A DNA stretch of 64,000 nucleotides from Caldilineae bacterium (GTDB taxonomy: Bacteria; Chloroflexota; Anaerolineae; JAAEKA01), in assembly GCA_020634555.1 (NCBI GenBank), contig JACKBK010000006.1, forward strand, positions 64,373 through 128,372, given 5' to 3'. A program made the position numbers and the translations under genes. This document shows, one piece after another, positions 5,458 through 64,000 of this stretch. The notes under the pieces were generated by a model. That model searched no databases. It was not told the origin of the DNA and saw nothing but the letters and a program-made list of their open reading frames with translations. The number at the start of each line of letters is the position of its first letter. The first letter of the stretch is position 1.

Positions 5458-5509
5458 ATCTGCCGGATGAACGCTGCAACGGTATAATGCAGCCCGGACA
5501 GACCTTCCC

Positions 5510-7632: not shown

Positions 7633-7696
7633 ACGGCGCGGTGGCCAGAGCAAGGTCGAGCGCCGGCGGCCGCATGCAAAACACAGAATACCTACC

Positions 7697-9420: not shown

Positions 9421-9450
9421 AGGCACTATGTCCAGTGAGTTGACTGCAAT

Positions 9451-10935
9451 ATGAGCAACAACCTGGCGCGGCGCAGCATAGCGTCTGTCGGCTGGAACGC
9501 GGGCGCCAGCGTGATCACAATCACAGTCTTGTTTGTGCGGTCGGTGTTGCTGGCGCGCCTGCTGCCGGTGGATGTGTTCGGTGTCTATGCCGGTGTGGGC
9601 GCGCTGATCGCGTTGACCGTCGTGCTACCAAACTTCGGAATGGGCGCCGCATTCCTGCACCGCGCGCCGGAGACGGAGGACGAGGAACGCGCAGCCGCCG
9701 TACACTTCACGCTGAAGCTGATTTTCACACTGCTCTGGGCCGCGGCGATGATTGCGTGGGGGCTGATTTTTACGCAGGGACAAACGCGCACAACACTGAT
9801 AGTGGTGACGATTGCCACAGCCGGCATCCAGCTTGCCCAGACCCCGGATCTGATCCTGACGCGGCGCGTGGTGCATCGGCGACTGGCACTGCTGCAAAGC
9901 GCTACAGCGATTTCGACGACACTGGTAGCTGTCTTTCTTGCCTGGCGCGGCGTGACGTTGTGGGCGCTGCTGGCGACAGATATTGTCACCCTGGTGGTGA
10001 CGCTGGTGATGCTTTACGTATGGCGGCCGGTGTGGCGGCCGCGGCTGGCTTGGGTGCCGGATGTCGTGCGCTATTATCTGCGCTTCGGCAGCAAGGTAGT
10101 GACCTCGGTTGGGTTGCTGCAAGCGCTGAACAACGTGGACGATCTGTGGACTCGCTACTATCTTGGCACCACCGCGATGGGCTACTACTCACGCGCCTAC
10201 ACCTTCGCCACGTATCCGCGGCGTGTGCTTGCCGGTCCGGTCAACGATGTCGCCGGCGGCACCTACGCTGAGCTCAAGCGCGATCGGCGGCGATTGTCGC
10301 AGGCGTTCTTTCGGTCGAATGCACTGCTGGTGCGGACCGGCTTTTTCATGGGCGGCGTGCTGGCTTTGATCGCGCCCGAACTGGTGATGATCCTGCTGGG
10401 AGAGAAATGGCTGCCAATGCTCCAGGCATTCCGGCTCATGTTGGTCTTCACCCTGCTCGACCCGATCAAGCTGACAGTCGGCAACCTGTTTGTGGCGGTG
10501 GGCCAGCCTGAGCTTCTGATTCGGACCCGGCTTGTGCAACTGGCAGTGCTTGTAATCGGTTTGTATACTCTCGGTTTTCGGCTGGGCATTACCGGTGTTG
10601 CGCTGGTCGTTGATGTGATGCTGATCGTCGGCATGGTGGTTTTGTTTCACCAAGCGCGTGTTCATGTCGATTATTCCTTGCGACAACTTTTCGCTGTTCC
10701 GACCCTGGCGTTGATTCTGGGACTGGCTGCCGGCGCCGGCGCCATGTTACTGGCTGGCGATCAGGCCACCGCCAACCTGTTGATGGCCGTGTTGAAGGGC
10801 GGCGCCTTTTCGGTGGTCTTCGTCGCCGTTCTCTGGATATTCGAACATCGCCAGCTTACGTCCATGGCCATTCAAATAGGCATACGTCTGCCGTGGCTGT
10901 CGTTGGGTCGCTCACGCCCTGACGACGCCGAGTGA
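9451..10935 (+). CDS. Polysaccharide flippase (Wzx-like, MOP superfamily)
   Basis: 494 aa with about 12-14 hydrophobic helices. It is located inside the glycan locus and has the typical Wzx N-terminus (...SVGWNAGASVITITVLFVRSVLLARLL). Confidence 0.75.
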   Translation: MSNNLARRSIASVGWNAGASVITITVLFVRSVLLARLLPVDVFGVYAGVGALIALTVVLPNFGMGAAFLHRAPETEDEERAAAVHFTLKLIFTLLWAAAMIAWGLIFTQGQTRTTLIVVTIATAGIQLAQTPDLILTRRVVHRRLALLQSATAISTTLVAVFLAWRGVTLWALLATDIVTLVVTLVMLYVWRPVWRPRLAWVPDVVRYYLRFGSKVVTSVGLLQALNNVDDLWTRYYLGTTAMGYYSRAYTFATYPRRVLAGPVNDVAGGTYAELKRDRRRLSQAFFRSNALLVRTGFFMGGVLALIAPELVMILLGEKWLPMLQAFRLMLVFTLLDPIKLTVGNLFVAVGQPELLIRTRLVQLAVLVIGLYTLGFRLGITGVALVVDVMLIVGMVVLFHQARVHVDYSLRQLFAVPTLALILGLAAGAGAMLLAGDQATANLLMAVLKGGAFSVVFVAVLWIFEHRQLTSMAIQIGIRLPWLSLGRSRPDDAE

Positions 10936-47568: not shown

Positions 47569-50500
47569 TTAACCTGCTGCGTCCTGGCGCAGCGTCAAAA
47601 GTTGGCGCAGGTCGTCGGTAGACAGCTCGGTCAGCCACCCCTCGCCAGCGCCGACCACGGCGTCGGCCAGCGCCTGCTTGCGCTCGATCAGGTCGTCGAT
47701 GGCCTCCTCCAGCGTGCCGGCGCACACCAGCTTATGAACGTGAACGTTGCGCGTCTGGCCGATGCGAAAGGCGCGGTCGGTGGCCTGGTTCTCCACAGCC
47801 GGGTTCCACCAACGGTCGAAGTGGAAGACGTGGTTGGCCGCGGTCAGGTTCAGACCGGTGCCGCCTGCTTTCAGCGACAGGATGAACAGCGCAGGGCTGC
47901 GGCGGCTCTGGAAGCGGGCAACCATCTCGTCGCGCTTCGACAGCGGCGTGCCGCCATGCAGGAAAAGCACCTCCTGGCCAAAAGCCTCCTGTAACTGGCG
48001 CTTGAGCAGCCCACCCATCTCGGCGAACTGGGTGAAAATCAGCGCCTGGTCGCCCTCGGCCAGCGCCTCCTCCAGCATTTCGTTGAGGCGCGCCAGCTTG
48101 CCGGAGCGGTGTTCCGGCCCGTCAGGACCGGAGAGCAGGGCCGGACTGCCGTCGGCCAGGAACTGCGCCGGGTGGTTGCAGACCTGTTTGAGCTTGAGCA
48201 GCGTGGCAAGCACCAGACCGCGCCGCCCGATGCCTTCACTCACCTCCAACTGCTGAAGCGAGTCCTTCACCACAGCCTGGTAGAGTGTGGCCTGCTCGGC
48301 GGTCAGCGTGCAGTAGGTGGTCATCTCCAGCTTGTCGGGCAGGTCCTGGATGATGGTGGGGTCGGTCTTGAGGCGGCGCAGAATGAACGGCTGCGTCAGC
48401 GAGCGCAACCGACGGGCCGCTTCCTCGTCGCCGGCCTTCTCGATAGGGCGGGCGAAATGCCGCTGGAAGTCGCGCTGCGATCCCAGATAGCCGGGGTTGA
48501 GGAAGTGCATGATCGACCACAGCTCGTTCAGGCGGTTCTCCACCGGGGTCCCGGTCAGGGCAATCCGGTGCTCGGCCGGCAGCTTGCGGATGGTCTGCGT
48601 CTGTTTGGCGCCTGGGTTCTTGATGTTCTGCGCCTCGTCCAGGATCACATCGCCCCAGTCGATGGTCAGCATCATGTCGGCATCGCGCCGGGCCAGCGCG
48701 TAGGTGCTGATGACCACATCGTGCCCGCGTGCGGCCTCCGCGAACTCTTCGCCGCGCCGCCGGTCGCCGCCGTGATGCACCATGACGCGCAGCGAGGGTG
48801 CAAAGCGTTGGATCTCGCGCTGCCAGTTGCCCACCACAGACGTCGGGCAGATAACCAGCGCCGGGCTGGCTCGGGTCCCCGCCGATGCGCCGGGCGAGCG
48901 CGTTGCCAGCAGATAGGCGATGGTCTCGGCGGTCTTGCCCAGCCCCATGTCGTCGGCCAGACAGGCGCCGAATCCCCAGCGGCGGAGAAAGGCGAGCCAG
49001 GAAAAGCCGCGCTGCTGGTAGGGGCGCAACTGGCCGCTGAATGCAGCCGGCTGTGGCAGCACCGCCATCTGGCCACCCGCCGTTTGCAGTTCTTCCACCA
49101 GGCGCGACAGCCATCCATCCGCGCTCACGCCGACCACATCGATGCCGGCGATCTGTTCCTGCGAGCCAAGCAGCACGCGCAGGGCCTCTTGCAGTGACAG
49201 CTCGCCCGCAGTTTTCTGCCGCGTTTCCCAGAACTTGATCGCCGTCTCCACCTGCTCCGGGTCGAGGACAGCCCACTGGCCGCGAATCCGTACCAACGGC
49301 TGCTTCAGGCTGGCAAGCCGTTCCAGCTCCTTGAGGGTCAGCGGTTCATCCCCCAACGCCAGGCTCCAGTCCACCGACACGATGCGCTCGAAACTCATGC
49401 CGCCAACCCCGCCCGATGGCGCTTTTTGCTGCGCTGGGCGCAGATTGAGCCGGGCGCCTAGCCGGTTGGAGGCACCGCGGCGGCCCCACCACTGTGGCGC
49501 CAGCACGCCAAAACCGCTCTCCTCCAGCAGCAAGGCCGTCTCGCGCAGGAAAGTGTATGCCTCCTCGGTGGTCAACGCGGCTGCCTCTGGCCGGGCCGCG
49601 TGCAGGCTCTCTTCGATGGGAGCGAAGAGACGCGACGCCTTGCCCAGCCCGGCCAGCATCTGTTCCTGTGGCTGGTCGAAGCGCCGATCCAGATAGCGCA
49701 GCTTCTGGCCGCGCGCCCGCCAGACCTGCTCCGCAGGCACCAGCAGGCTCAGATCGTCGGCGGCCTGCAAGAGGTAGCGCAGTTGCCAGGCGCGCTCATT
49801 CCGCTCAACCGGGGGTTCTTCAGGCGGTTCCAACCGAAAACAGAGGCGAAAGGCCTCGTCGCCGTCGGTCCGTAGCTGTGCCAGCCAGTCATTGACCTGT
49901 CCGGCAAGACGCGCGAGGTCGCCGGCCGAACCGTCCACCGCCGGATCGGCGCGCAGCAGCGCATTTCGCCAGCGCAACTCGGAACGCACAGGAACGCGAG
50001 CGGCAGTCGCGGCGGACTGCGCAGCCCAACCGCGCACACAGGCATCGGTGACGGTGTGCAGGAAGTTGGTCAGCAGACCGGCAGGCCCGGGTGGGTTGGC
50101 CGGGTCGTCAGGCAGACGCAGCGCACGGCAAACCGGCGGCATGGCGGCTGCCAGTTGCTCCAGCCGTGTCCGGTCGGCCGGGTCGTCCAGAGAGGGTTGC
50201 CACGCAGCACGATAGGTTGCCTGGGACTTCTGACTACCCGCGGCTGGAGCAACTGGTTCCGGCAAGGCCGGCACCAAGCGTTGCCGCGCCAGCAAGCTGA
50301 GCTGGAAGCGCGCCGCCATCCGCCAGAACTTCACGTCCGCGCCCAACGTGACCTGCGGTGGCAGCCGGTCACGCTCCGGCAGGCGAGCCAACCAGGGCAA
50401 CGCATCTTCAGGAGAGAGCAAGCAGCCGGCTACCTGCCAGGTGGCCAGACTGGTCTCGCCGTCTGGCGTATCCTCGGCGTCAACCAGCAGGTCGGGCGAT

Positions 50501-50799
50501 GACAGAGGTTGTATGCCGCGGCTGGGGAGATCTACATGAAGGAGCGCGGCTGATCGCGATGCACTGTCGCCGGGCAAGCTGCGCATCGCCGTCTCCAGTG
50601 TTCCGGCATCAGCGGCGAAAGGATGCGGGCTGACCCTGGGGCGTCTGCCGCGACGTTTTGCCGCCGGTGGGCCGGGCGAAGCCTCGCACCAGATCGCGAG
50701 CGCGCCGTCCGACGCTGGATTGGAAGATGAGGGAAGCCAGGCGCAGTGGAGAACAACCATGGGGGTGTGATTAACGATGTCTTGTGAGATGAGAGCCAA
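47569..50799 (-). CDS. SNF2/Rad54-family helicase-like ATPase with a long N-terminal SNF2-associated region
   Basis: ...[10 protein letters not shown]... (motif I), ...[11 protein letters not shown]... (DEAQ, motif II), ...[11 protein letters not shown]... and the helicase-C region ...[19 protein letters not shown]...[42 protein letters not shown]. The track start is TTG 50799. An alternative is ATG 50760 ([10 protein letters not shown]). Confidence 0.9.
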
Positions 50800-50918
50800 T
50801 GGCCGCCAGGGCCAGAGGTCTGTCCGCCCTCTGGCCGGTCATCACGGTCAATCATAGCCCGTCCGATGTATCCTGTCAATGTCGTGTGGTTGCGCTTCAA
50901 AGTCACTTTGTACAATGA

Positions 50919-50947
50919 TTGCATCCCATTTGAAAACTGGATATAAT
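50919..50947 (+). promoter_or_regulatory. Candidate promoter TTGCAT-17-TATAAT for the STAND ATPase gene
   Basis: Read directly in the AT-richer 228-bp divergent intergenic region. It is flanked by two copies of caaagtcac (about 50898 and 50951). Confidence 0.35.
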
Positions 50948-51027
50948 CAACAAAGTCACCCCGTCTTTGTGCTGGTACGTTGACGGTGTTCTGACATGTC
51001 AACCACGGTTTACCAAAGGTAATCGCC

Positions 51028-53118
51028 ATGTCTCCTCGCCTATCTGATCGAATTAGCGCCGCGCGCCGGCACCGTTTTATAGGTCGTGTGGCTGAGCAAG
51101 CCCTTTTTGAGTCTGCCATCAGCGCCGACGATCTTCCCTTCAATGTCTTGCACGTCTACGGCCCCGGTGGTGTCGGCAAAACGAGCCTGCTGCGCCAGTT
51201 TGCCGAGATCAGCCAAAGCCACGGCGCGGCCGCCTACAGCATCGACGCACGCAACACTGAGCCTGCACCAGACTCGTTTCTCGCCGCGCTGAGCATGGCG
51301 ATGGGATCGAATCCGGCCGAGTCGCCGGCCGACGTGCTGGCACAGCGCAAGGCGCGAGCGGTGATTCTTGTTGATACCTTCGAGAAGTTGTCGCCGCTGG
51401 AGGACTGGCTGCGCGACGGGTTCCTGCCGCGGTTGCCGGAGTCAGTCCTGGTCGTTCTGGCCGGCCGCAACCCGTTGAGCTCAACCTGGCGCGCCGATCC
51501 GGGATGGCAACCTTTTCTGCGCAGTGTGGCGTTGCGCAACCTCAGCCCCGAGGAAGGGCGCAGCTATTTGAAGCAGCGCAACCTGCCCGCCGACGAACTT
51601 CAGTCTGTTCTCGACTTCACCCACAGCTATCCCCTCGCGTTGTCGCTGGTGGCCGATATGTACGACCAGCGGCCCGATTTCCGCTTTATGCCGGCCGCTG
51701 CGCCCGATGTTATCAAGATGCTGTTGGAGCAGTTTCTGCAGCGCGTACCCGGCCCGGCGCACCGTGCGGCGCTGGAAGCCTGCGCGTTGGTGCGTGTGAT
51801 GACCGAGTCGTTGTTGGCCGAGATGCTCAACATGCCAGAGCCCAACGACCTGTTCGATTGGCTGCGAAGTCTGTCGTTTATCGAGACCCGACCGGGCGGC
51901 CTGTTTCCCCACGACCTGGCACGCGATGCACTGGTGGTCGATCTGCGCTGGCGCAACCCGGAGTGGTACGGCGAGATGCACCGGCGGGCGCGGGCGCACT
52001 ATACACAACGCCTGCAAAGCACCAATGGGCCGGAACAACAACTTGCCCTCTTCGATCTGGTTTTTCTGCACCGTGATAACCCAATGGTGCGCCCTTTCTT
52101 CGAATGGCAAACCAGCGGCAGAATGCTGCCCGACATGCTGCGCGATGCGGACGGTAGCGTCTTGCTGGACATGGTCTCCCGTCTCGAGGGACCGCAGTCG
52201 GCGCACCTGGCCGCCCAGCTGTTTGAGCAACAGCCGGAGAACGTGATAGTCTTCCGCGACGGCGAAGGTCAGGCCACCGGCTTCCTGACCCTGATCAACT
52301 TGAACCGGCTGAATGCCGCTGATCGGGAGCAGGACCAGGCGTTTGTCAGCGCCTGGCGCTATCTTCGACAGCGGCGCGCGCCGCTACGCGCTGGCGAGTC
52401 GGCCACCTATTTCCGCTTCTGGATGGCCGACGACACCTATCAGGGTGTGTCGCCAACGCAGAGTCTGATCTTCATCAACATGGTGCGTCACTATCTGACC
52501 ACGCCAGGCCTGGCCTTCACCTTCATTCCCTGCGCCGATCCTGATTTTTGGACCGAGGTGTTCGCCTATGCCGATCTGGCGCGGCTGCCCGATGCTGATT
52601 TCGAGATCGACGGACGCCGCTTTGGCGTCTACGGACACGATTGGCGCGCCACGCCGCCGGCCGCCTGGCTGGAGCTGTTGGCTGAGCGCGAGACTGCCCT
52701 GGCGCCGGAGACGATCCAGCCGCCACCGCCGGAGGAGCGGCTTGTCGTCCTCAGCGCAGAAGAGTTTGGCGACGCGGTGATCAACGGGCTGCGCGAGATG
52801 TCCAGGCCCGGCGGCCTGCGGGACAATCCACTGCTGCGCTCACGATTGGTAGTGCAACGCGCCGGATCCGATTCTGGTGAAAGCCAACGCAACACCGCGC
52901 TGGATGAGTTGCTGCGCGAGGCGGTTGCCAGCCTGCAGATGTCACCCAAAGATCTGAAGTATTACCGCGCTGTGTATCACACCTACGTACAGCCGGCTGC
53001 TACACAAGAGTTGGCTGCCGAGCTGCTGGATCTGCCTTTTAGCACCTATCGCCGGCACCTGAAGACAGGCATCACTCTGGTGACAGAGATGCTGTGGCAG
53101 GCAGAACTCGATACGTAG
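51028..53118 (+). CDS. STAND/NB-ARC-like P-loop ATPase with a C-terminal sigma70-r4/LuxR-type HTH (signal-transducing transcriptional regulator)
   Basis: ...FIGRVAEQALFE...NVLHVYGPGGVGKTSLLRQF (Walker A), ...AVILVDTFEKL (Walker B), ...THSYPLALSLVA (GxPLAL-like NB-ARC motif), an uncharacterised ~350-aa middle region, and a C-terminal ...QELAAELLDLPFSTYRRHLKTGITLV (HTH). Confidence 0.65.
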   Translation: MSPRLSDRISAARRHRFIGRVAEQALFESAISADDLPFNVLHVYGPGGVGKTSLLRQFAEISQSHGAAAYSIDARNTEPAPDSFLAALSMAMGSNPAESPADVLAQRKARAVILVDTFEKLSPLEDWLRDGFLPRLPESVLVVLAGRNPLSSTWRADPGWQPFLRSVALRNLSPEEGRSYLKQRNLPADELQSVLDFTHSYPLALSLVADMYDQRPDFRFMPAAAPDVIKMLLEQFLQRVPGPAHRAALEACALVRVMTESLLAEMLNMPEPNDLFDWLRSLSFIETRPGGLFPHDLARDALVVDLRWRNPEWYGEMHRRARAHYTQRLQSTNGPEQQLALFDLVFLHRDNPMVRPFFEWQTSGRMLPDMLRDADGSVLLDMVSRLEGPQSAHLAAQLFEQQPENVIVFRDGEGQATGFLTLINLNRLNAADREQDQAFVSAWRYLRQRRAPLRAGESATYFRFWMADDTYQGVSPTQSLIFINMVRHYLTTPGLAFTFIPCADPDFWTEVFAYADLARLPDADFEIDGRRFGVYGHDWRATPPAAWLELLAERETALAPETIQPPPPEERLVVLSAEEFGDAVINGLREMSRPGGLRDNPLLRSRLVVQRAGSDSGESQRNTALDELLREAVASLQMSPKDLKYYRAVYHTYVQPAATQELAAELLDLPFSTYRRHLKTGITLVTEMLWQAELDT

Positions 53119-54879: not shown

Positions 54880-57027
54880 CTACGAACAAGTCTGTATCGC
54901 AGTTGCCAGCGCGACCACGTGCGGCGCCGGCGTTTGAGGGCCGATGCCGCACGCGGAGCCTGCGACGAAGCCGCCGCCCGCTCCCATCTCAACGCACAGA
55001 CTGCGAGCGTGTGCCTGAATAGCCTCTACCGGTCCCGCCATCAGCAGATCGTTGGGAAAGCCGCCGGCCAACGCCATCTTACCGGCCCACGCCCGACGCA
55101 TCTCGGCCAGATCGTTGTGAGCCGGATCGACCGGATGCACGAAGTCGAAACCAACCTCATGCAACAGCGGCATGACGGCCCCGACTTGGCCTGGCGTGTG
55201 AATACCGACCGGCTTGCCGTGTTCCATAGCCGGCGCGATCAGCCGGCGCGCCCGTTCGCCATACACCGTTTCCAGCAGATCGAGAGCCAGTCGCGGCCCT
55301 TGCGGCCCGCTGAGCACGTCGCTGATCAACACAGCAGCCAGCTCGTCACCGAAGCGGTCGCACAGAGCGCGCAGCAGGCGAAGCTGGTGTTTCAGCAGAT
55401 CGTCCATGCGGCGCTCCGCCAGCGGACGATCTGCCTGCATAAGTTGCGCCAGGTCGAAGGCATCTTCATTGCCGGCCCCCATCACCCCTGTAATGTGGAC
55501 GATAACACCGACATCTGTCTCCCGGACAGCGCGCAGATAACGCTCCAGATAGTTTAGCTGATCCAGCAGGGGCGCGGCAGGCCGGCCGAGCTCGCCCGCG
55601 CCGCCGTTTTGGTTGCCGCCTGGCCAGGAGAGGTCGCACACCACGGCGTCCATGCCCAGCCGTCCGGCCAGTTCGACGTGGTCCTCGGGCGTAGCCGGAC
55701 GTCCGCTGAGCGGATCGTGTTGCGCCGGCCTGCCCAGCATATGCGAATAGAGGGCTGGACTGTTGATCCACATCTCCAGATAGGGCGTCCGGTCGGCCGG
55801 CTCGTGCCGGAGGGTCGCCAGCAGGCGGTCCACATCCGCTTGCGGCGTTTCCACCGCGGCCACGCGGGAAGCGACCAAGACACCCATTGCACCAAGACTT
55901 GCCCGGCTGGCCTCCACCACCTCCGGCGGCACGCGCGGCGCGATGCTCACCGACTCTGGCGCACCGAAGGCAACGGGCAGGCTGAGCGAGTTGCCACCCG
56001 GGTCAGAAAGCCGTGCGCCGCAGGAATAGCGCACCACCAGCCGCGTTGGCAGCACCACCTGGCGGGCCGGCAAATCCTCATCGGCGGCCAGGCGGCTGAG
56101 CAACAGTTGCGCCGCGTTGACCCCTAAATCGTAGACCGGTTGGCTGGCGACGGTCAGAAACGGGAACAGATGCGATGCGTGCGGCAGGTCGTCGAAACTG
56201 ACCAGTGCGATGTCGTGGGGGATGCGCAGTCCATGGCGGCCCACGGCATCGATGATGCCCATGGCGATGGTGTTGTTGGCGGCGAAGATGGCCGTTGGAG
56301 GGTGGGACATGCGCAGCAGGGTGTCGGCCTCGCGCTCGCCAGCGCCGGCGCGGAACTCGCCAAAGCGGATCAGCGCCGGATCGGCCGCGATGCCGGCGTC
56401 ACTCAGCGCCAGATGATAGCCCACCACCCGGTCGATGGCGGTGGACGTGTTGGCTGGGCCGGTAACGACCGCGATGCGCCGGTGTCCCAGCGCAATCAGA
56501 TGCCTGACCAGCGCGCGCGCGCCGGCCACCGAGTCGCCGCGCACCGTGTCCACCTCCCAACCGGCGATGTCGCGGTCCACAACGACAACCGGAATGTTCC
56601 GCCGGCGCAGCTTCTCCAGGTTGTCCGCATCGGTGTCATAAGGTGCGATGATGACGCCATCGACCTGCTGGCTGATCACCACGTCGAGATAGCTCTGTTG
56701 CTTGGCGGGGTTCTCGTCGGTGTTGCAGAGAAAGACTGAATACCCTTTTCCCTGCGCGGCATCCTCAACGCCGCGCGCGATGGTGGTCCAGAAGGTGTTG
56801 TTGACATCGGGAACGATGAGGGCGACGGTGAAGGTCTGGCGGGAACGCAGGCTGCGGGCCGCGATGCTTGGCACATAGCCCAGCTCTTCAATGGCGCGCT
56901 GCACTCGCGCCTGGGTGGTCGAGCTGACCCGGTTGGAGTTGTTGAGCACCCGCGACACCGTAACCGCCGACACGCCGGCCAGCTTGGCTACGTCATGGAT
57001 AGTTGCCAAAACACAATCTCCCTTCAT
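54880..57027 (-). CDS. Fusion protein: LacI-family transcriptional regulator (HTH + periplasmic-binding-fold sensor) fused to a C-terminal uroporphyrinogen-decarboxylase (URO-D)-like domain
   Basis: The N-terminus ATIHDVAKLAGVSAVTVSRVLNNSNRVSSTTQARVQRAIEELGYVPSIAARSLRS plus a ~270-aa PBP-fold domain ends near ...LVVRYSCGA. A ~40-aa linker follows. Then ...VDRLLATLRHEPADRTPYLEMW...GMDAVV...GKPVGIHTPGQV...GFDFVHPVDP...GGFVAGSACGI resembles URO-D/MtaA-family TIM barrels. It is a single uninterrupted 715-codon ORF. Confidence 0.75.
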   Translation of the reverse strand: MKGDCVLATIHDVAKLAGVSAVTVSRVLNNSNRVSSTTQARVQRAIEELGYVPSIAARSLRSRQTFTVALIVPDVNNTFWTTIARGVEDAAQGKGYSVFLCNTDENPAKQQSYLDVVISQQVDGVIIAPYDTDADNLEKLRRRNIPVVVVDRDIAGWEVDTVRGDSVAGARALVRHLIALGHRRIAVVTGPANTSTAIDRVVGYHLALSDAGIAADPALIRFGEFRAGAGEREADTLLRMSHPPTAIFAANNTIAMGIIDAVGRHGLRIPHDIALVSFDDLPHASHLFPFLTVASQPVYDLGVNAAQLLLSRLAADEDLPARQVVLPTRLVVRYSCGARLSDPGGNSLSLPVAFGAPESVSIAPRVPPEVVEASRASLGAMGVLVASRVAAVETPQADVDRLLATLRHEPADRTPYLEMWINSPALYSHMLGRPAQHDPLSGRPATPEDHVELAGRLGMDAVVCDLSWPGGNQNGGAGELGRPAAPLLDQLNYLERYLRAVRETDVGVIVHITGVMGAGNEDAFDLAQLMQADRPLAERRMDDLLKHQLRLLRALCDRFGDELAAVLISDVLSGPQGPRLALDLLETVYGERARRLIAPAMEHGKPVGIHTPGQVGAVMPLLHEVGFDFVHPVDPAHNDLAEMRRAWAGKMALAGGFPNDLLMAGPVEAIQAHARSLCVEMGAGGGFVAGSACGIGPQTPAPHVVALATAIQTCS

Positions 57028-57092
57028 CCGCCGCGTGTCGGACGACAGTCACTTGTGGGGACTCCTGATAACCACTCAACCTTCATTGTTGC

Positions 57093-57158
57093 GTCACTCC
57101 CGCGCAGGCGGGAGTCCAGCGCCCGTGAAGATGTGGATTCCCGCCTTCGCGGGAATGA
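57093..57158. repeat. Short (66-bp) member of the CCCGC-GAAG-GCGGG MITE-like family
   Basis: gtcactcccgcgcaggcgggagtccag...tggattcccgccttcgcgggaatgaa, in the same orientation as the 53140 copy. Confidence 0.8.
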
Positions 57159-57227
57159 AGGGTGAGCAGTTATTACTCCTGAAGCCCAGCAAAGGAGCCG
57201 AAGGTGACTGTCACCTCAACAAGCGCG

Positions 57228-58247
57228 CTACGCTGCTACGTCCACCATCACCTTCGTAAAACTCACCGGGTCGGCGTCCCAGGCGCGCAGCGCTTCGCCG
57301 GCTTCCGCGAACGGGAAGGTGCGGCTGATCAGCTCAGGAAAAGGCCGCTCGCGCGCCTCCAGCATCTTGATGACGGCGGGAAAGACGCGCAGGGCGTTGC
57401 GCGCGCCGCAGATGTCCAGCTCTTTGCGCACGAAAAGCGCGGTGTCGTAGCAGACGTCCTGCTTGGCGTAGCCAACATAGACCACTCGCCCGGCAAAGGC
57501 GACCGCATCCACGGCCAGCCGAAAGGTCTGCGGCAGCCCGACCGCCTCGACCGCCACGCTAACGCCGTCGCCGCCGGTGAGATCACGTACCGCGTGCAGC
57601 ACATCCGCCTGGGCTGAGTTGATGGTGTGGCGGGCGCCAAATCGCCGCGCGCCGGCCAGCTTGCCGTCATCGATGTCGCTGGCAATAACCGTGGCGCCTT
57701 TACGAGCCGCAGCCGCGATCACGCCGATGCCGACCACGCCGCAACCCATGACCAGAACCGTGTCGGTCTCGCTGATACGGCCGCGGTTGGCAGCATGGTA
57801 GCCAACGCTGAGCGGTTCCGTCAGCGCCAGTTCCGGCAGCGTCAGGCGGGTACTGGTGAATACCTTGCTGTAGTGGATCGCCACCAACCGCGTCAACGCG
57901 CCATCGCGCTGCAGGCCCATGGTCTCGTTGAACTGGCAGCAGTTGGGCCGGCCGGCCCGGCAGGCCGGGCAGATGCCACATTCGGAGTAGGGCGACAAGA
58001 CGACCTGCGCGCCCTGGGCGATGCGGTCGGGCACAGCCGCGCCCTTGTCCACCACAATCCCGCTGGCCTCGTGGCCGAGAACGCGCGGATAGCGCATCAA
58101 TGGAAACGTGCCGCGGTAAGCGTTGAGGTCGCTGCCACACATTCCCACGGTGCGCATCTCGACCAGAACCTCCTCCGCGCCAAGGTGGGGTTCAGGTATT
58201 TCGACGAGTTCAATCTGGCGCGGCGCAACGAGTCGAACTGCTTGCAT
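57228..58247 (-). CDS. Zinc-dependent medium-chain alcohol/polyol dehydrogenase
   Basis: ATG 58247 gives MQAVRLVAPRQIELVEIPEP...VGMCGSDLNAYRG...LGHEASGIVV (Zn ligands) and ...VLVMGCGVVGIGVIAAA (Rossmann). The track ORF to 58625 is an extension. Confidence 0.85.
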   Translation of the reverse strand: MQAVRLVAPRQIELVEIPEPHLGAEEVLVEMRTVGMCGSDLNAYRGTFPLMRYPRVLGHEASGIVVDKGAAVPDRIAQGAQVVLSPYSECGICPACRAGRPNCCQFNETMGLQRDGALTRLVAIHYSKVFTSTRLTLPELALTEPLSVGYHAANRGRISETDTVLVMGCGVVGIGVIAAAARKGATVIASDIDDGKLAGARRFGARHTINSAQADVLHAVRDLTGGDGVSVAVEAVGLPQTFRLAVDAVAFAGRVVYVGYAKQDVCYDTALFVRKELDICGARNALRVFPAVIKMLEARERPFPELISRTFPFAEAGEALRAWDADPVSFTKVMVDVAA

Positions 58248-58297
58248 GGGTGGCTCCACAGTAATCGGCCAGGCGACAGAACTTCCGCCACCAATTT

Positions 58298-58350
58298 CAC
58301 GAATTTCACCAATTCTGGTTCCGAAATTCGTACCATCCGTGTAATTCGTG
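58298..58350. promoter_or_regulatory. Cluster of three ACGAATT half-sites (CACGAATT, AATTCGTA, AATTCGTG) upstream of the Zn-ADH gene
   Basis: Sites lie at 58298-58305, 58325-58332 and 58343-58350 in an AT-rich 125-bp gap between the AKR stop and the ADH start. The first site is inverted relative to the other two. Confidence 0.25.
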
Positions 58351-58372
58351 GCAGATGCTCGGCTCTGGCAGT

Positions 58373-59329
58373 TCAGGATTGCTTCGGCACCGCGCCGGGA
58401 TCGTCGTTTTCCGGCCGGCCTTCGCGCCAGACCACGTCGGCCACGGGGTCGATCATCGCCTGTATCTCGGCCAGTAGCCGCGGATCGGGCGCGACGCCAA
58501 CCGCCTTGACATTGCTGTCCACGTGGCTGACCTTGCTCATGCCCACCAGAGTCGTGGCGACATCGTCGTAGGCCAGCGCGTATTGCATGGCCAGGTCGGC
58601 GATGTCCACGCCCTGGGATCGGCACCAGTCGGCCACCTCGCGGCTTTTTTCGATCACTGCCTGGGGCGCGGGGTGCCAGTCAGGCGCGCCCTTTTCGGTC
58701 AGAGCACGCATATGCAGCGGCGATGCGTTGATCAGGCCTACGCCGCGCTCCTTGGCAACAGGCGTCAGCATGGCATCCATGGTGGTGTCGAACAGGTTGT
58801 AGCGGCAGTAAGAGAGTATGGTGTCAACCCTGGTTTGCGAGATGACATCCGCAAGCTGCAACAGGGGATAGCCGGTGATGCCCACGAAGCGCACCTTGCC
58901 CGCCTCCACCAACGAGTACAGGGCCGGCAACGTCTCATGAACGATCTGTGCGCGGTCGCCGTACTCGATGTCGTGGATCTGGATCACGTCGATGACGTCG
59001 GTACGCAGCCGCCGCAGGCTTTCGTCCACGGAACTGACCACACAACGAGCCGAGAAGTCGAAGTGGTCGATGTCGTAGCGCCCGACCTTGGTGGCCAGGA
59101 TCACCTGGTGGCGCTTGTCTTCCAGAAACTCACCCAGTCGGGTTTCCGCCAGTGTGCGCCCGTAGTAGGGCGCCACGTCAAAGTAGTTGATGCCGCAGGC
59201 GATGGCGTGATGAACCGCGCGCCGCCCCTCTTCCGGGTCGATGCGGCCAAACTCGGCTCCCAGAGGAGACGCGCCATAGCCGACGACAGAGACTTGCAGG
59301 CCGGTTCTCCCCAGGGTTCGGTAGATCAT
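58373..59329 (-). CDS. Aldo/keto reductase (L-fucose / L-galactose / D-threo-aldose 1-dehydrogenase-like)
   Basis: ATG 59329 (SD caggag) gives MIYRTLGRTGLQVSVVGYGASPLG...INYFDVAPYYG...ILATKVGR...DVIQIHD. This is the AKR catalytic D/Y/K/H context. The track start 59458 is an extension across the promoter region. Confidence 0.85.
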   Translation of the reverse strand: MIYRTLGRTGLQVSVVGYGASPLGAEFGRIDPEEGRRAVHHAIACGINYFDVAPYYGRTLAETRLGEFLEDKRHQVILATKVGRYDIDHFDFSARCVVSSVDESLRRLRTDVIDVIQIHDIEYGDRAQIVHETLPALYSLVEAGKVRFVGITGYPLLQLADVISQTRVDTILSYCRYNLFDTTMDAMLTPVAKERGVGLINASPLHMRALTEKGAPDWHPAPQAVIEKSREVADWCRSQGVDIADLAMQYALAYDDVATTLVGMSKVSHVDSNVKAVGVAPDPRLLAEIQAMIDPVADVVWREGRPENDDPGAVPKQS

Positions 59330-59353
59330 ACGAGGCTCCTGTTCAGGAAGGTG

Positions 59354-59375
59354 AAACCGATTAATCGAAATCGAT
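59354..59375. promoter_or_regulatory. Candidate operator: overlapping palindromes CGATTAATCG and ATCGAAATCGAT
   Basis: The 10-bp perfect palindrome at 59358-59367 has a CG-type centre like LacI-family operators. It lies just downstream of the predicted minus-strand transcription start. Confidence 0.3.
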
Positions 59376-59384
59376 ACCATGATA

Positions 59385-59412
59385 ATGATAAACATCTTGG
59401 CCCATTTGTCAA
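59385..59412 (-). promoter_or_regulatory. Candidate promoter for the AKR/ADH operon (TTGACA-16-TATCAT, minus strand)
   Basis: Minus-strand TTGACA = 59412..59407 and TATCAT = 59390..59385. Confidence 0.4.
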
Positions 59413-59433
59413 GCTGGTTGGAAATGCTATAAT
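59406..59433 (+). promoter_or_regulatory. Candidate promoter TTGTCA-16-TGCTATAAT, ending 9 nt before the kinase ATG (leaderless or near-leaderless mRNA)
   Basis: The -35 at 59406-59411 overlaps the divergent promoter's -35 back to back. The extended -10 TGCTATAAT is at 59425-59433 and the ATG at 59443. There is no SD. Confidence 0.45.
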
Positions 59434-59442
59434 GACCATACC

Positions 59443-60930
59443 ATGAAACACACCGCAAACTTCCTTGCTATCGATCTGGGCGCATCCAACGGACGTGTCG
59501 TGCTGGGCCGCTGGGACGGCCAGCGCTTCGATCTGCACGAGCTGCACCGCTTCGCCAACGGTCCGGTCAACGTGCTGGGCAGCCTGTACTGGGACCCGCT
59601 GCGGCTCTGGAGCGAGATCAAGGCCGGTATGGCGCGCTATGGACAGCAGTTCAGCCAGCCGCTGGCCGGCATTGGCCTGGACACCTGGGGCGTGGACTTT
59701 GCGTTGTTGGACCGGGCCGGCCGCTTGCTGGGCAATCCGTTCCAGTACCGCGACGCCCGCACCGACGGCATGATGGAGCTGGCGTTCGAGCGAGCCGGCC
59801 GATCGGCCATCTTTCGCCACACCGGTATCCAATTCATGCAGATCAACACCCTCTATCAGCTTCTGAGCATGGTGGAAGCACGCGATCCCCAACTGGACGC
59901 GGCCGAGACGTTGTTGCTGATGCCCGACCTGTTCAACTATTGGCTGACCGGCCGCACCGTGGCTGAGTACACCATCGCCAGCACCAGCCAGATGCTGGAC
60001 GCGCGCCGGCGCACCTGGGCAACCGGCCTGTTGGACCAACTGGGCATACCGACAGCCATCCTGCCGCCGGTGGTCGACGCAGGCACGGTGCTGGGCGATC
60101 TCAGAAGCGACATCGCTGGCGAGGTCGGCGCGCCGGGAACACCCCAGGTCATCGCCGTTGGCAGCCACGATACCGCCAGCGCAGTGGCGGCTATTCCCGA
60201 TCTGGGGCCGGAGAGCGCCTACATCAGCAGCGGCACCTGGAGCCTGATCGGCGTCGAGACGCCACAGCCGGTGCTGAGCGATCAAGCGCTGGCGCTGAAC
60301 TTTACCAACGAAGGGGGCGTCGCCGGCGATATCCGGCTGTTGAAGAACAGTACCGGTCTCTGGCTGCTGCAGGAAAGCCGCCGCCAGTGGCAGCGGGACG
60401 GTCACGATTACTCCTGGGACGAGCTGTTGGATCTGGCAGGCAAAGCACCTGCCTTCCGCAGCCTGGTCGACCCCGATGACCGCGCGTTCCTCAACCCGCC
60501 CGACATGCCCGCTGCGATCCGGGCGTATTGCCGGCGCACCGGCCAGCCTGAGCCGGAAAGCGTCGGTGCCGTGGTACGTTGCTGCCTGGAGAGCATGGCG
60601 CTGGCGTCGCGGGCTGTCATCGACTCGCTGGAGACGTTGCTGGAACGACGGCTGGAGGTGGTGCGGATCGTCGGCGGCGGCAGCCAGAACGCGATGCTTT
60701 CCCAGTTCACTGCGGATGCCTGCCAGCGGCCGGTGGTCTGCGGCCCGGTGGAAGCCACGGCGCTGGGCAACGTCATGGTGCAGGCCATTGCCACCGGCCA
60801 GATCAACGACATCGCGGCCGGCCGCCGCGCGATCGCCAGCTCGATCCCATTGCTTCGCTACGACCCGGAGGCCAGCGCTGCAGCGGCGTGGGAGGACGCA
60901 TCCGGCAGGTTCGCGGCACTGCACGGGTAA
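59443..60930 (+). CDS. Rhamnulokinase-like FGGY-family sugar kinase
   Basis: ...FLAIDLGASNGRVVLGRWDGQRFDLHELHRFANGPV...GIGLDTWGVDFALLD...GSHDTASAV...GGGSQNAMLSQFTADA... closely follows the RhaB pattern. Confidence 0.85.
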   Translation: MKHTANFLAIDLGASNGRVVLGRWDGQRFDLHELHRFANGPVNVLGSLYWDPLRLWSEIKAGMARYGQQFSQPLAGIGLDTWGVDFALLDRAGRLLGNPFQYRDARTDGMMELAFERAGRSAIFRHTGIQFMQINTLYQLLSMVEARDPQLDAAETLLLMPDLFNYWLTGRTVAEYTIASTSQMLDARRRTWATGLLDQLGIPTAILPPVVDAGTVLGDLRSDIAGEVGAPGTPQVIAVGSHDTASAVAAIPDLGPESAYISSGTWSLIGVETPQPVLSDQALALNFTNEGGVAGDIRLLKNSTGLWLLQESRRQWQRDGHDYSWDELLDLAGKAPAFRSLVDPDDRAFLNPPDMPAAIRAYCRRTGQPEPESVGAVVRCCLESMALASRAVIDSLETLLERRLEVVRIVGGGSQNAMLSQFTADACQRPVVCGPVEATALGNVMVQAIATGQINDIAAGRRAIASSIPLLRYDPEASAAAAWEDASGRFAALHG

Positions 60931-61019: not shown

Positions 61020-62447
61020 ATGGTCGGCATTTTGTTTTCCGAAAGGACGTCTGTTGTGGACGCCATTGCTTCAAACGAGACACGAAGCGCAGTCCAGCTC
61101 GAAAAGGACTATGTGTTGCACACCTGGCAGAATCGCCAGGGAGACTGGGACGGTCCGACAGTGGTTGGCGGCGAAGGCGCCTGGTTTTGGGACGAGGAAG
61201 GTAAGCGCTACCTGGACCTTAGCAGCCAGGCTCAGTGCAACCACCTGGGCCACCAACACCCCGACATGGTGGCAGCTATTCAGAAGCAAGCCGCTGAGCT
61301 CTGTTTTATCCACATCGCCTGGGGAGCGAAGCCGCGTGCAGAACTGGCCAAGCGGCTGATCGAGACAAGCGGCATGGAAGGTGGCAAGGTATACTATGCC
61401 CAGTCGGGGGCCGGCGCCACCGAGCACGCGATGAAGGTAGCCCGCTGGATCACAGGGCGCCAGAAGATCATCAGCCGCTATCGTTCCTATCACGGCGCAA
61501 CCAGCAACGCGATCGCGCTCAGCGGGGACTCGCGCAACTGGTCCACACCCGGCGTGCCCAACATCATGCACGCGCTGCCTCCCTATTGTTACCGCTGTCC
61601 CTTCCAGTTGACCTATCCCGGCTGCAACCTGCGCTGCGCCAGCCACATCGCCGACATCATCGAGTGGGAAGGACCGAACAACGTGGCCGCGCTGGTGGTG
61701 GAGCCTATCGTGGGAACAAACGGTGTTTTTGCCGGGCCCGGCGACTACTGGCGCGAGCTGCGCGACATCTGCAACCACTACGGCGTCCTCCTCATCGCAG
61801 ACGAGGTGATGACCGGCTTCGGCCGCACCGGGGCCTGGTTTGGCTGGCAGCACTGGCCCGATGCCGCTCCCGACATCATGCTGTTGGGCAAGGGACTGAC
61901 GGCTGCCTATCAGCCTCTCGGCGCGGTGGTGCTCAACCAGCACTGCGCCAGCTTCTTTGGCGATCATCCACTTCCCACGGGACTGACCTATTCAGGACAT
62001 CCCCTGTGTTGTGCGGCCGGCGTGGCCGCTATCGACCTCTACGAACGAGACGGGTTGATCGAGCGCAGCCGCAAGCTGGGCGCCTGGATGCACGGCCAAC
62101 TGCGGGAGATCAGCACGCACCATCCCAGCGTGGGCGACCTGCGCGGCATTGGGCTTTTTGCGGGCATGGAACTGATCGTCAACGAGGAAACGCGGCAGCC
62201 GCTTTCGCCGTGGCCACACATGCACCCCGCCTTGAAGCGTCTGAAGTCAGAAGCCAGGGATCGCGGGATAACGTTGACCACCCGAGGCAACCTGCTGATC
62301 ATCTCCCCGCCGTTGATCATCGAAAAGAGCGATCTGGCCTGGGGTATTGCGCAGGTCGACGAGTTGCTCGACATCATCGACGAAGAATACGGCACTCAGT
62401 CCAACGGGTGGAGACCTGAGCGTACCCACCACATTGGATTCCGTTAG
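61020..62447 (+). CDS. Class-III (omega) PLP-dependent aminotransferase
   Basis: ...GEGAWFWDEEGKRYLDLSSQAQCNHLGHQHPDMV..., ...SGAGATEHAMKVAR..., ...LLIADEVMTGFGRTGAWFG... and ...LGKGLTAAYQPLGAV (Schiff-base Lys). Confidence 0.85.
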   Translation: MVGILFSERTSVVDAIASNETRSAVQLEKDYVLHTWQNRQGDWDGPTVVGGEGAWFWDEEGKRYLDLSSQAQCNHLGHQHPDMVAAIQKQAAELCFIHIAWGAKPRAELAKRLIETSGMEGGKVYYAQSGAGATEHAMKVARWITGRQKIISRYRSYHGATSNAIALSGDSRNWSTPGVPNIMHALPPYCYRCPFQLTYPGCNLRCASHIADIIEWEGPNNVAALVVEPIVGTNGVFAGPGDYWRELRDICNHYGVLLIADEVMTGFGRTGAWFGWQHWPDAAPDIMLLGKGLTAAYQPLGAVVLNQHCASFFGDHPLPTGLTYSGHPLCCAAGVAAIDLYERDGLIERSRKLGAWMHGQLREISTHHPSVGDLRGIGLFAGMELIVNEETRQPLSPWPHMHPALKRLKSEARDRGITLTTRGNLLIISPPLIIEKSDLAWGIAQVDELLDIIDEEYGTQSNGWRPERTHHIGFR

Positions 62448-62476: not shown

Positions 62477-64000
62477 ATGACCAAACCAAAGTTTAAGATC
62501 ACCTACGCGACCCTTTCCGCGGACAACCCGGAACTCAACGAGATGTTTGACCAGGCTGTGACGCGCGTGAAGAGCCGCTTCGGCGCGAACTATCCTCTTT
62601 TTATCAACGGTGAGGAACGTTGGGCCGAGGAAACCTTCGAGGATCGCAGCCCCATCAACAGCGACTGGCTGCTGGGGACATTCCAGAAGGGCACCAGGGA
62701 AGACGCGGCCGAGGCATTGGCTGTCGCGCGCGCGGCCTTCGATGGCTGGCGCAAAACCCCGTGGCAGGAGCGCGTGGCGATCATGCGCCAGGCCGCCGAC
62801 CTGATCAGCGAACGCAGCTTCGACATCGGCGCGGCGGTAACGCTGGAGATCGGCAAGAACCGGTTGGAAGCGCTGGGCGACGTGGAAGAGACCGCCGACC
62901 TGATCCGCTGGTACTGCGACGAGATGGAGCGCAACAACGGCTTTATCAAGCCACTGAACGAAGAGTCGCCCAAGCACCACAACACCAGCGTGCTCAAGCC
63001 CTACGGCGTCTGGGTGGTGATCTCTCCCTTCAACTTCCCCTTTGCGCTGGCAGGTGGGCCGGCCGGCGGCGCGCTGGTGGCCGGCAACACGGTGGTTTTC
63101 AAGCCGGCCACCGACACGCCGCTCAGCGGCTGGTTGCTGACCGAGTGCATCCGCGACGCTGGGGTGCCGGCGGGCGTTTTCAACTACGTCTCCGGGCCGG
63201 GACGCACCGTGGGCGAGGAGCTGATCACCAACAACGAGGTGGATGGCATCACCTTCACCGGCTCCTTCGACGTCGGTATGCACATCTACCGCACCTTCGC
63301 AGCCGGCGCATATCCCCGACCCTGCATCGCTGAGATGGGCGGCAAGAACGCCACCATCGTGAGCCGCAAGGCCGACCTGGACAAGGCCGCGTTGGGCGTC
63401 ATGCGCTCCGCTTTCGGCCTCACCGGCCAGAAGTGCTCGGCGTGCAGCCGCGTCTACGTAGAAGAGCCGGTCCACGAGGCCTTCGTGCAGAAGCTGGTTG
63501 CACTGACCAGCAAGATGAACGTGGGCGATCCCTCGCGCCGCGAGGTGTATATGGGACCGGCAGCCAACAAGGGCGCCTACCGCGACTACCAGACCTTTGT
63601 CGAGGCGCTGCACCGCGACGGCGAGGTGCTGACCGGCGGCAAACTTCTGACCGAGGACGGCTTCGACAAGGGCTTCTTCGTGGCGCCGACCGTGGTGGAC
63701 AACCTGCCGTTGGACCACGAGCTGTGGAAGGTCGAGATGTTCCTGCCCATCGTCAAGGTGGCGGGCGTTGAGTCGCTGGACCAAGCCATGGCGCTGGCCA
63801 ACGACAGCGTCTACGGGCTGACCGGCGGCTTCTTCAGCGAGGATCCCGACGAGGGACGGTGGTACCTGGACAACATCGAGGCCGGCGTGGTCTACGTCAA
63901 CCGGCCGGCGGGCGCGACCACCGGCGCGTGGCCGGGGTTCCAGCCCTTCGGCGGCTGGAAGGGCAGCGGCAGCACCGGCAAGGCCGGCGGCGGCTTCTAC
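62477..64000 (+). CDS. Aldehyde dehydrogenase, 1-pyrroline-5-carboxylate (glutamate-semialdehyde) dehydrogenase-like; 3' end runs off the window
   Basis: Not in the supplied track because there is no stop before the window end. ATG 62477 has SD gaggag 8 nt upstream. My own translation is MTKPKFKITYATLSADNPELNEMFDQA...VISPFNFPFALAGGPAGGALVAGNTVVFKPA...ITFTGSFDVG...AEMGGKNATIV...GQKCSACSRVYV..., which contains the catalytic Glu/Cys ALDH motifs. It is open for 508 codons. Confidence 0.85.
   Translation, partial: MTKPKFKITYATLSADNPELNEMFDQAVTRVKSRFGANYPLFINGEERWAEETFEDRSPINSDWLLGTFQKGTREDAAEALAVARAAFDGWRKTPWQERVAIMRQAADLISERSFDIGAAVTLEIGKNRLEALGDVEETADLIRWYCDEMERNNGFIKPLNEESPKHHNTSVLKPYGVWVVISPFNFPFALAGGPAGGALVAGNTVVFKPATDTPLSGWLLTECIRDAGVPAGVFNYVSGPGRTVGEELITNNEVDGITFTGSFDVGMHIYRTFAAGAYPRPCIAEMGGKNATIVSRKADLDKAALGVMRSAFGLTGQKCSACSRVYVEEPVHEAFVQKLVALTSKMNVGDPSRREVYMGPAANKGAYRDYQTFVEALHRDGEVLTGGKLLTEDGFDKGFFVAPTVVDNLPLDHELWKVEMFLPIVKVAGVESLDQAMALANDSVYGLTGGFFSEDPDEGRWYLDNIEAGVVYVNRPAGATTGAWPGFQPFGGWKGSGSTGKAGGGFY

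Follow-up and report, generated by a model that had tools for sequence, protein, structure and literature searches.

A LacI-type repressor joined to a URO-D/MtaA-like barrel is a widespread, so far uncharacterised regulator of Chloroflexota in which the barrel may serve as a second sensing module

The current analysis concerns a gene encoding a LacI-type repressor fused to a uroporphyrinogen-decarboxylase-like (URO-D) barrel, which lies within a stretch of 64,000 nt (hereafter, the window) on contig JACKBK010000006.1 of a Caldilineae bacterium. The fusion occupies one unbroken open reading frame (ORF) on the minus strand (54880..57027), with 715 codons counted from the first ATG at 57027 and a stop codon at 54880-54882; the residue numbers used throughout follow this frame. 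Translation probably begins at the TTG at 57009, which would yield a protein of 709 aa, since homologues, the database entry P0001, and the orthologues in loci L001 and L008 all begin there. A GGGAG Shine-Dalgarno-like motif is found 7 nt upstream of this TTG. Residues 9-54 (56866..57003, minus strand, as are all parts of the gene) form a LacI-type helix-turn-helix (HTH; Pfam PF00356, E 1.8e-19, 69.7 bits vs a cut-off of 27). A periplasmic-binding-protein (PBP)-type effector and dimerisation core occupies residues 67-336 (56020..56829) and is recognized by Pfam Peripla_BP_1 (residues 67-322, 135 bits), Peripla_BP_3 (residues 174-336, 113 bits), and Peripla_BP_4. A variable, disordered linker of residues ~337-397 (55837..56019) leads into a URO-D/MtaA-like (beta/alpha)8 barrel of residues ~398-715 (54883..55836), identified by Pfam, AlphaFold (AF2), and Foldseek, and present in the window as a divergent version. 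Its Pfam URO-D match (PF01208, residues 515-712) scores 50.5 bits vs a gathering cut-off of 23.9. The initial annotation of this gene, made from the sequence alone, had described an uninterrupted 715-codon frame, a complete LacI regulator ending near ...LVVRYSCG, and a C-terminal URO-D/MtaA-like barrel, all of which are borne out here: the single frame is intact in a second strain as well, the Pfam domains agree and place the end of the core at residue 337, and the barrel exceeds its Pfam threshold with a predicted structure matching both MtaA and UroD. The linker it had put at ~40 aa is longer, spanning ~60 residues (337-397) of low pLDDT in the full-length model.

The fusion is a genuine gene and is not rare. 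It is not a frameshift artefact, because the ORF is intact in a second strain and at least 117 full-length fused homologues share its LacI-PBP-URO-D architecture. The second strain (locus L088, an ENA contig) is 99.3% identical to the window in nucleotide sequence, with the same gene order, and its fusion ORF differs by 10 substitutions, 9 of which are synonymous. The fused homologues are drawn from NCBI, ENA, JGI, and Logan assemblies, and the frame runs continuously across a conserved linker motif in which L350 and P351 are invariant. Those homologues that carry a taxon name are all from Chloroflexota. A search with the full-length protein yielded 579 matches (E ≤ 1e-5). Of the best 120, almost all are fused proteins of 700-770 aa, and the database names in this set are no more specific than “LacI family transcriptional regulator” or “substrate-binding domain-containing protein”. 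Full fusions are encoded by ~40 of the best 80 species-representative genome loci, and all of these fusion-bearing loci belong to Chloroflexota metagenome-assembled genomes (MAGs) of the Anaerolineales, Caldilineales, and Thermoflexales. Of the two features that, according to the initial annotation, would together count against its reading, only the first applies: the architecture is common, but no description of it was encountered in the literature searched. Papers on the mlp gene cluster (PMC10418091) and a rhamnose regulon (PMC3870299) are of no relevance to it. Some shorter or split window-type versions also occur, namely P0007 (599 aa), P0008 (547 aa), P0083 (484 aa), P0121, and P0122, whose lengths span 207-599 aa (68-74% identity; contigs of 23-493 kb) and which could reflect either long-read assembly frameshifts or real gene decay or fission.

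The LacI module by itself looks like a complete sugar-responsive repressor. Residues 5-338 align end to end with CytR, RbsR, PurR, and CcpA (NCBIfam, E ~1e-65 to 1e-74), whereas the scores fall below every NCBIfam equivalog cut-off, and the module is thus not an orthologue of any named regulator. In the AF2 model, the PBP core shows an alternating beta/alpha secondary structure at a pLDDT of ~75-90. R200, N251, and D279, which we take by motif and from established knowledge to be the equivalents of the LacI inducer-pocket residues R197, N246, and D274, are invariant in the alignment columns of 20 fused proteins. Because these residues are intact, the inducer pocket looks intact as well and a small sugar probably releases the repressor. 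Across the 117 fused proteins, mean column identity is highest in the PBP core (0.81), similar in the HTH (0.73) and the barrel (0.735), and lowest in the linker (0.46). The full-length AlphaFold model contains well-folded domains, but its whole-chain pTM is only 0.48, and pLDDT drops below 50 at residues 335-365 and 377-397, leaving one short predicted helix (368-378) between them. According to this model, the protein consists of two independent modules on a ~60-residue tether with that single helix.

The second of these modules is, as modelled, a complete URO-D/MtaA-type barrel. AlphaFold predicts residues 385-715 with a pLDDT of 85.8 and a pTM of 0.86, and Foldseek matches the model to MtaA (4ay7/4ay8; E 5e-12, TM 0.72) and to ~20 UroD structures (E ~1e-10, TM 0.67-0.73, 17-22% identity), with other TIM barrels appearing only at E > 1e-6. 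Sequence searches of solved structures point to the same two enzymes: weakly with a single sequence (UroD 4exq, E 7e-4; MtaA 4ay7, 2e-3), and with more significance when a family profile is used (UroD 3cyv, E 5e-8; MtaA 4ay7, 4.5e-5). Scores against the MtaA family models are far below their cut-offs (TIGR01463, 23.6 bits vs 235.4; PRK06252, 27.3 vs 244), while the window protein has no TIGR01464 (hemE) match at E ≤ 0.01. The best family matches, weak as they are, are therefore to MtaA/CmuA and not to HemE, and the same holds for all of the barrel paralogues. Judged on these matches, the barrel belongs to an uncharacterised MtaA-like subfamily. An MtaA-type zinc enzyme was considered for this subfamily and ruled out, as the Cys ligands of the MtaA zinc motif H-x-C...C are not conserved in it. 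In an alignment to 4ay7, the histidine (H610) is 99% conserved, but the position of the first zinc Cys (612) is Asp, Ala, or Pro in the subfamily (Pro in the window), and that of the second (693) is Gly, Thr, or Asn in most members, with Cys present only in the window protein.

The regulator very probably controls the adjacent gene cluster, as the initial annotation had proposed, since the operator predicted for its family is located within the divergent promoter region of that cluster. An unbiased search for inverted repeats in the intergenic regions of fused loci recovered CGATA-N6-TATCG, a motif derived from more than 40 loci, with the full 20-bp palindrome consensus AACGATATCATGATATCGTT. 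Sites with ≤3 mismatches were found in 42 sources, usually 40-90 bp upstream of the regulator gene, and they also precede unfused LacI orthologues. Scoring with the derived weight matrix placed a ≥14-bit site in the 200 bp preceding the LacI start in 41 of 80 loci (median position -57 bp), and the 1.1 Mb of these loci holds only 65 such sites in total. The window holds a single strong site, ATCGATACCATGATAATGAT at 59370..59389 (a palindrome, assigned to neither strand), which scores 26.5 bits vs a null maximum of 11.4. It is also the sole match at ≤3 mismatches in the 64 kb, where 0.13 would be expected, and it is identical in L088. This predicted operator sits in a 113-bp divergent region that extends from the start of an aldo/keto reductase (AKR) gene at 59329 to that of a rhamnulokinase-like gene at 59443. 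Two predicted sigma-70-like promoters, each with 11/12 consensus positions, lie back to back within this region. The first (59385..59412, minus strand; TTGACA, 16-nt spacer, TATCAT) would serve the AKR, an alcohol dehydrogenase (ADH), and presumably the regulator, and its -10 box overlaps the predicted operator. The second (59406..59433, plus strand; TTGTCA, 16-nt spacer, TG-TATAAT) would serve a kinase-aminotransferase-aldehyde dehydrogenase operon. Only 10 nt separate the end of its -10 box from the kinase ATG (59428-59443), so the rhamnulokinase-like mRNA may be leaderless or nearly so.

Other candidate operators fared poorly. Of the two put forward in the initial annotation, 59354-59375 touches only the left edge of the predicted operator, and although it is the second-best matrix match in the window, its 8.6 bits are not significant vs the null maximum of 11.4; 58298-58350 holds a weak 17-mer palindrome and gained no support. 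A cre/PurR-like operator was rejected, the pattern TGNNANCGNTNNCA having 0 matches in the window. The same is true of the perfect 15-bp palindrome AGGTGACTGTCACCT (57202-57216), which does not match the family motif. This palindrome lies 12 bp past the ADH stop codon, and a similar GGTGAC-N-GTCACC half-site pair recurs in one other locus only (L018).

On the minus strand, the operon that ends with the regulator begins with the AKR (58373..59329, 318 aa; Pfam Aldo_ket_red, E 1.2e-52), followed by a Zn-dependent ADH (57228..58247, 339 aa; Pfam ADH_N and ADH_zinc_N). Their starts were corrected using domain matches and the L088 gene call, as the mechanical ORFs were over-extended (AKR 58373-59458, 361 aa; ADH 57228-58625, 465 aa). 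On the plus strand are a rhamnulokinase-like FGGY kinase (59443..60930; TIGR02627, 488 bits vs a cut-off of 528; Pfam FGGY_N and FGGY_C), a class-III aminotransferase (61020..62447; Pfam Aminotran_3, E 3e-86), and an aldehyde dehydrogenase (62477..64000) that runs past the window end and was identified by phmmer against the L001 gene, itself a Pfam Aldedh match. The initial annotation had viewed this cluster as a deoxyhexose-type catabolic one, a label that holds in part: the kinase is rhamnulokinase-like and a fucose/rhamnose link is clear in the relatives, whereas the window cluster encodes no isomerase, aldolase, or mutarotase, such that here the label would derive from the kinase alone. 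Nor does the 64-kb window contain a corrinoid protein gene, another URO-D gene, an L-rhamnose mutarotase (RhaM), or FucI. Between the ADH stop and the regulator start (region 57076-57158) there are GC-rich hairpins at 57096-57115 and 57137-57156. They form part of a ~80-bp unit that is present in different copy numbers in the window and in L088 (L088 4440-4700; BLAST), where the gap measures 387 bp vs 218 bp in the window. The unit resembles a REP/MITE-like element; no repeat in the gap was reported by Tandem Repeats Finder. Upstream of the cluster, within 47569-53118, are a minus-strand ORF of 1076 aa with SNF2-type helicase motifs (read by eye) and a plus-strand 696-aa STAND/AAA_16 NTPase with a C-terminal HTH-like region, both unrelated to the fusion.

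Searches with the barrel only identified stand-alone URO-D-family proteins of 355-362 aa with 36-41% identity over ~96% of the length. Among 1.84 billion cluster representatives, a profile search retrieved 224 relatives (E ≤ 1e-30), which are mostly stand-alone proteins of 320-375 aa, with roughly 12-18 clusters being LacI fusions. A cluster look-up of the basal stand-alone relatives returned no useful names. A stand-alone barrel gene directly follows the fused gene in L019 and L022, and most loci have no barrel of this type other than the fused one. The gene context was also compared among the relatives, with ORFs called mechanically and neighbours labelled with single-sequence phmmer E-values. 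In the main clade of fusions, the fused gene typically heads a single operon, followed by a URO-D paralogue (c1; 14 loci, median 73 bp downstream), an L-rhamnose mutarotase, a second URO-D paralogue (c2), a creatininase-family protein, and a CUT1 sugar ABC transporter, often with the addition of FucI, an FGGY kinase, and DUF4432. A corrinoid protein had been considered for the gene between the URO-D paralogues and was rejected, the gene being the L-rhamnose mutarotase in most loci. In L010, L012, L016-L020, L025, L026, L035, L038, and L043, the operon includes two to four MtaA-like URO-D paralogues with HxC and S-x-H motifs, and its creatininase-family protein is weakly IolN-like. No description of this Anaerolineae RhaM-URO-D paralogue-CUT1 operon was found in the literature searched, which was equally silent on URO-D proteins accompanied by RhaM and on a corrinoid-based demethylation of methylated sugars. 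The chemistry of the operon is possibly methyl-ether cleavage on sugars.

A link to corrinoid proteins emerges from the same loci. Genes for methyltransferase-type corrinoid proteins number 6 in 1.2 Mb of loci, and 6/6 adjoin a barrel gene or its LacI partner, including two directly beside fused genes (L014 and L015). Furthermore, the relatives P0173 (616 aa) and P0281 (593 aa) carry a barrel with C-terminal B12-binding_2 and B12-binding domains. Despite the unconserved zinc motif, this adjacency and these barrel-B12 fusions suggest that the barrel subfamily is most likely a corrinoid-protein partner. Among the relatives, we also encountered the gene orders [LacI][corrinoid protein][FucI], [corrinoid protein][barrel][FucI], [LacI-barrel][corrinoid protein], and [LacI-barrel][barrel], all of which fit an origin of the fusion between adjacent genes, and this is the most likely scenario as judged from gene order. 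In L002 (Anaerolineales, CP070811.1), genes directly upstream of a main-clade fusion (5035-9855) encode a pterin-binding (MeTr-like) methyltransferase, a 441-aa protein of unknown type, a 577-aa ADH_N protein, and an SDR, while those downstream encode FGGY, FucI, ADH, a G3P dehydrogenase, DUF4432, a stand-alone URO-D protein, and a radical SAM protein. The pterin-binding gene is consistent with a methyl-transfer route to folate.

The two halves of the fusion were placed in simple neighbour-joining trees, which carry no support values. Fused and unfused regulators are intermingled in the LacI-domain tree, inside a single clade with a common operator and operon type, which argues for the barrel being an accessory module. 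The fused barrels group as one clade in the barrel tree, with some stand-alone copies nested inside and more basal stand-alone copies outside, a pattern consistent with a single ancient fusion and repeated later loss or fission. Within this family, sequence comparison marks the window copy as a divergent paralogue: two MAGs encode a window-type protein (76-78% identical) alongside a main-clade one (50-52%). The window clade comprises the window itself (W) and loci L088, L001, and L008, which share the upstream ADH_Zn, kinase, class-III aminotransferase, and aldehyde dehydrogenase genes, the ADH directly preceding the regulator in all of them. L001 and L008 add a PBP1-type ABC transporter with an operator in front. 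None of the window-clade loci encode URO-D paralogues, RhaM, FucI, or a corrinoid protein. In L001 (the 78%-identical locus, 6069-8024), the FGGY kinase was called only as a 152-aa fragment beside a PLP-dependent decarboxylase-like fragment, which suggests that the divergent operon is decaying in that genome.

The divergence of the window clade is concentrated in the barrel. Among positions that are ≥95% conserved in the main clade, 11/71 are changed in the window-clade barrel vs 3/134 in the LacI part. The barrel changes include GN→GG, PPEN→PAPH, NDD→SDV, and a conserved Gly→Asp/Glu, and thus affect residues conserved across the family or even the superfamily; there is also a ~25-residue deletion, and the C-terminal tail is missing. 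Within the clade, the barrels are 69-82% identical, with dN/dS values of 0.15-0.22 that indicate purifying selection, compared to 0.09-0.15 for the LacI part and 0.33-0.62 for the linker. A decaying pseudo-domain is ruled out by the barrel values. Given that pocket residues have been lost and no partner genes are nearby, yet purifying selection persists, the barrel of the window copy is most likely non-catalytic.

Based upon these features, we can propose, with slightly less than even confidence, that the protein is a sugar-responsive repressor bearing an enzyme-derived, probably non-catalytic second sensing module, the role of the barrel being inferred. A repressor dimer would bind the 20-bp palindrome at 59370-59389, where it would cover the -10 box and the likely transcription start and thereby block the AKR-ADH-regulator operon, including its own gene; the back-to-back promoter of the rhamnulokinase-like, aminotransferase, and aldehyde dehydrogenase genes may be affected as well. 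A small sugar in the LacI pocket would probably release the repressor. The tethered barrel would, as an accessory sensing module, add a second input to this repression, which could come from a substrate of the pathway or from a protein partner, for instance a corrinoid protein, and its action could resemble the modulation of CcpA by HPr-Ser-P. The initial annotation had likewise proposed a second sensor or a trigger enzyme; this choice is still a matter of interpretation, in which the lost pocket residues argue against an active enzyme in the window copy.

Several observations weigh against a sensing barrel and against parts of this scheme. Firstly, AlphaFold predicts no fixed contact between the barrel and the LacI core (pTM 0.48). 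Secondly, the barrel has been lost repeatedly while the operator and operon were retained, so its contribution may be small. Thirdly, virtually all residues conserved in stand-alone members are still present in the fused barrels of the main clade, which would suit an enzyme as well as a sensor. The corrinoid link is moreover confined to 6 loci and does not extend to the window. Lastly, the window operator departs from the 16-bp core at 3 positions, and a match of this stringency turns up somewhere in 12% of shuffled windows; the significance of the operator rests on its matrix score and location.

Among the alternatives, the one that survives best, though we still regard it as unlikely, is that the barrel is a trigger enzyme, i.e. 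a working pathway enzyme, probably a corrinoid-dependent methyltransferase, whose catalytic state or substrate occupancy feeds back on repression. The near-complete retention of conserved residues by the main-clade barrels would be expected in this case, as would the finding that the fused copy is usually the sole barrel of its type at a locus, the presence of corrinoid-protein genes beside the fused genes of L014 and L015, and the existence of barrel-B12 fusions. Furthermore, the conserved polar residues C464, D570, H610, H631, and S691 are predicted to lie at the ends of beta-strands, as in a typical barrel active site. However, the window copy has replaced the GN, PPEN, and conserved Gly residues together with the second D of NDD and has deleted ~25 residues, while its 64-kb surroundings provide neither a corrinoid protein nor another URO-D paralogue. 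The subfamily as a whole does not conserve the zinc motif of MtaA, and unfused orthologues run the same operons while lacking this barrel. The main clade is a better candidate for trigger-enzyme function than the window copy.

UroD enzymes are homodimers, and the barrel could conceivably dimerise in the same manner to join two LacI dimers into a tetramer, thus strengthening operator binding or looping DNA. The barrel does occupy the topological position of the C-terminal tetramerisation helix of E. coli LacI, the long flexible tether would permit bridging, and purifying selection acts on the barrel even where its pocket has diverged. Nevertheless, we consider such an oligomerisation module doubtful: most loci have a single strong operator (the 65 sites of ≥14 bits are spread over 80 loci, with one in the window), which gives no sign of looping partners, and the polar residues lining the pocket are strongly conserved in the main clade, which argues for ligand binding rather than a purely structural role.

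Less probable again is a neutral fusion, in which lacI lost the stop codon that separated it from a downstream barrel gene, leaving either two independently acting parts or an idle barrel. A barrel gene does adjoin the regulator gene in relatives, the tether is long, variable, and disordered with no interdomain packing predicted, and the barrel has been lost several times. Against this, the fusion persists in lineages that share only ~67% identity in the LacI part and ~43% in the barrel, the barrel dN/dS is 0.15-0.22 even in a locus devoid of pathway partners, and the window-clade paralogue retained its fusion after moving to a different gene cluster. As for an assembly or sequencing artefact that merged two separate genes, to which the shorter and split window-type relatives might be thought to point, its likelihood is negligible in view of the intact ORF in an independent strain with 9/10 differences synonymous, the at least 117 fused homologues from several assembly sources and ~40 species-representative genomes, and the continuous frame through the linker motif with its invariant L350 and P351.

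Beyond the individual protein, a broader scenario can be considered, although it is a speculative one that we deem improbable as a whole. Anaerolineae may possess an as yet undescribed corrinoid-dependent methyl-transfer system of several MtaA-like barrels and a corrinoid protein within fucose/rhamnose-type operons, which would hold RhaM, FucI, an FGGY kinase, and sugar ABC transporters, with the LacI-barrel fusions coupling repression to that system and the window paralogue being a derived form. One possible function is the removal of methyl ethers from O-methylated deoxyhexoses. The tethered barrel would then read either the methylated substrate or the methylation or B12 state of the corrinoid protein, and the window paralogue would have turned the barrel into a sensor alone, serving another pathway. 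Independently of this scenario, the fusion family provides a “Rosetta stone” that links the uncharacterised MtaA-like barrel subfamily and its corrinoid protein to fucose/rhamnose-type operons in Anaerolineae. These bacteria abound in sludge, sediments, and mats, and little is known of how they metabolise carbohydrates. The predicted operator and promoter make the regulatory part of the favoured proposal directly testable.

Despite these uncertainties, the three-part regulator is genuine, widespread, and so far uncharacterised, and it is instructive to compare it with systems that are better understood. LacI-family repressors are among the best understood of all regulators and normally have two modules. 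Like LacI, PurR, CcpA, RbsR, and CytR, the fusion possesses an HTH, a hinge, and a type-I periplasmic-binding-protein core within its first 337 residues, keeps the putative inducer-pocket residues, and has a predicted 20-bp palindromic operator near a promoter. It is distinct from these repressors in its additional ~320-residue barrel on a ~60-residue tether and in the half-site of its family, AACGATATCA with a CA|TG centre, the cre-like TGNNANCGNTNNCA being absent from the window. If the favoured proposal of a second sensing module is true, the enzyme-derived third module would represent a new information input to the LacI scaffold and a possible part for engineered sensors.

The barrel likewise has two obvious points of reference. 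It shares the fold of MtaA/MtbA/CmuA (TM 0.72 to 4ay7), and its relatives adjoin or are fused with corrinoid proteins, whereas the subfamily is without the H-x-C...C zinc ligands and the window is without a corrinoid protein. Its resemblance to HemE/UroD lies in the fold (TM 0.67-0.73), a Pfam URO-D score above threshold, and a profile match to 3cyv, but the two are only 17-22% identical, there is no hemE equivalog match, and the context is one of sugar catabolism rather than haem synthesis.

As a regulatory arrangement, the fusion is reminiscent of CcpA, the DNA binding of which is tuned by the separate phosphoprotein HPr-Ser-P plus small molecules. In both cases, a LacI-family repressor would receive input from a second protein module, an analogy drawn from established knowledge, except that the candidate partner is covalently attached here and no docking interface is predicted. 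Regulators with enzyme-derived domains are also well known, such as MocR/GabR with its aminotransferase fold, the trigger enzymes PutA, BirA, and NadR, and CarH with its B12-binding domain. Similar to these, the fusion joins a DNA-binding module to a domain from a metabolic enzyme family that is also encoded nearby in stand-alone form. No LacI-family regulator with an enzyme-derived third module was found in the literature searched. In MocR/GabR, PutA, BirA, NadR, and CarH, the enzyme-like domain is the only sensor, whereas the fusion already has a complete LacI sensor core, to which the barrel is added as a third module.

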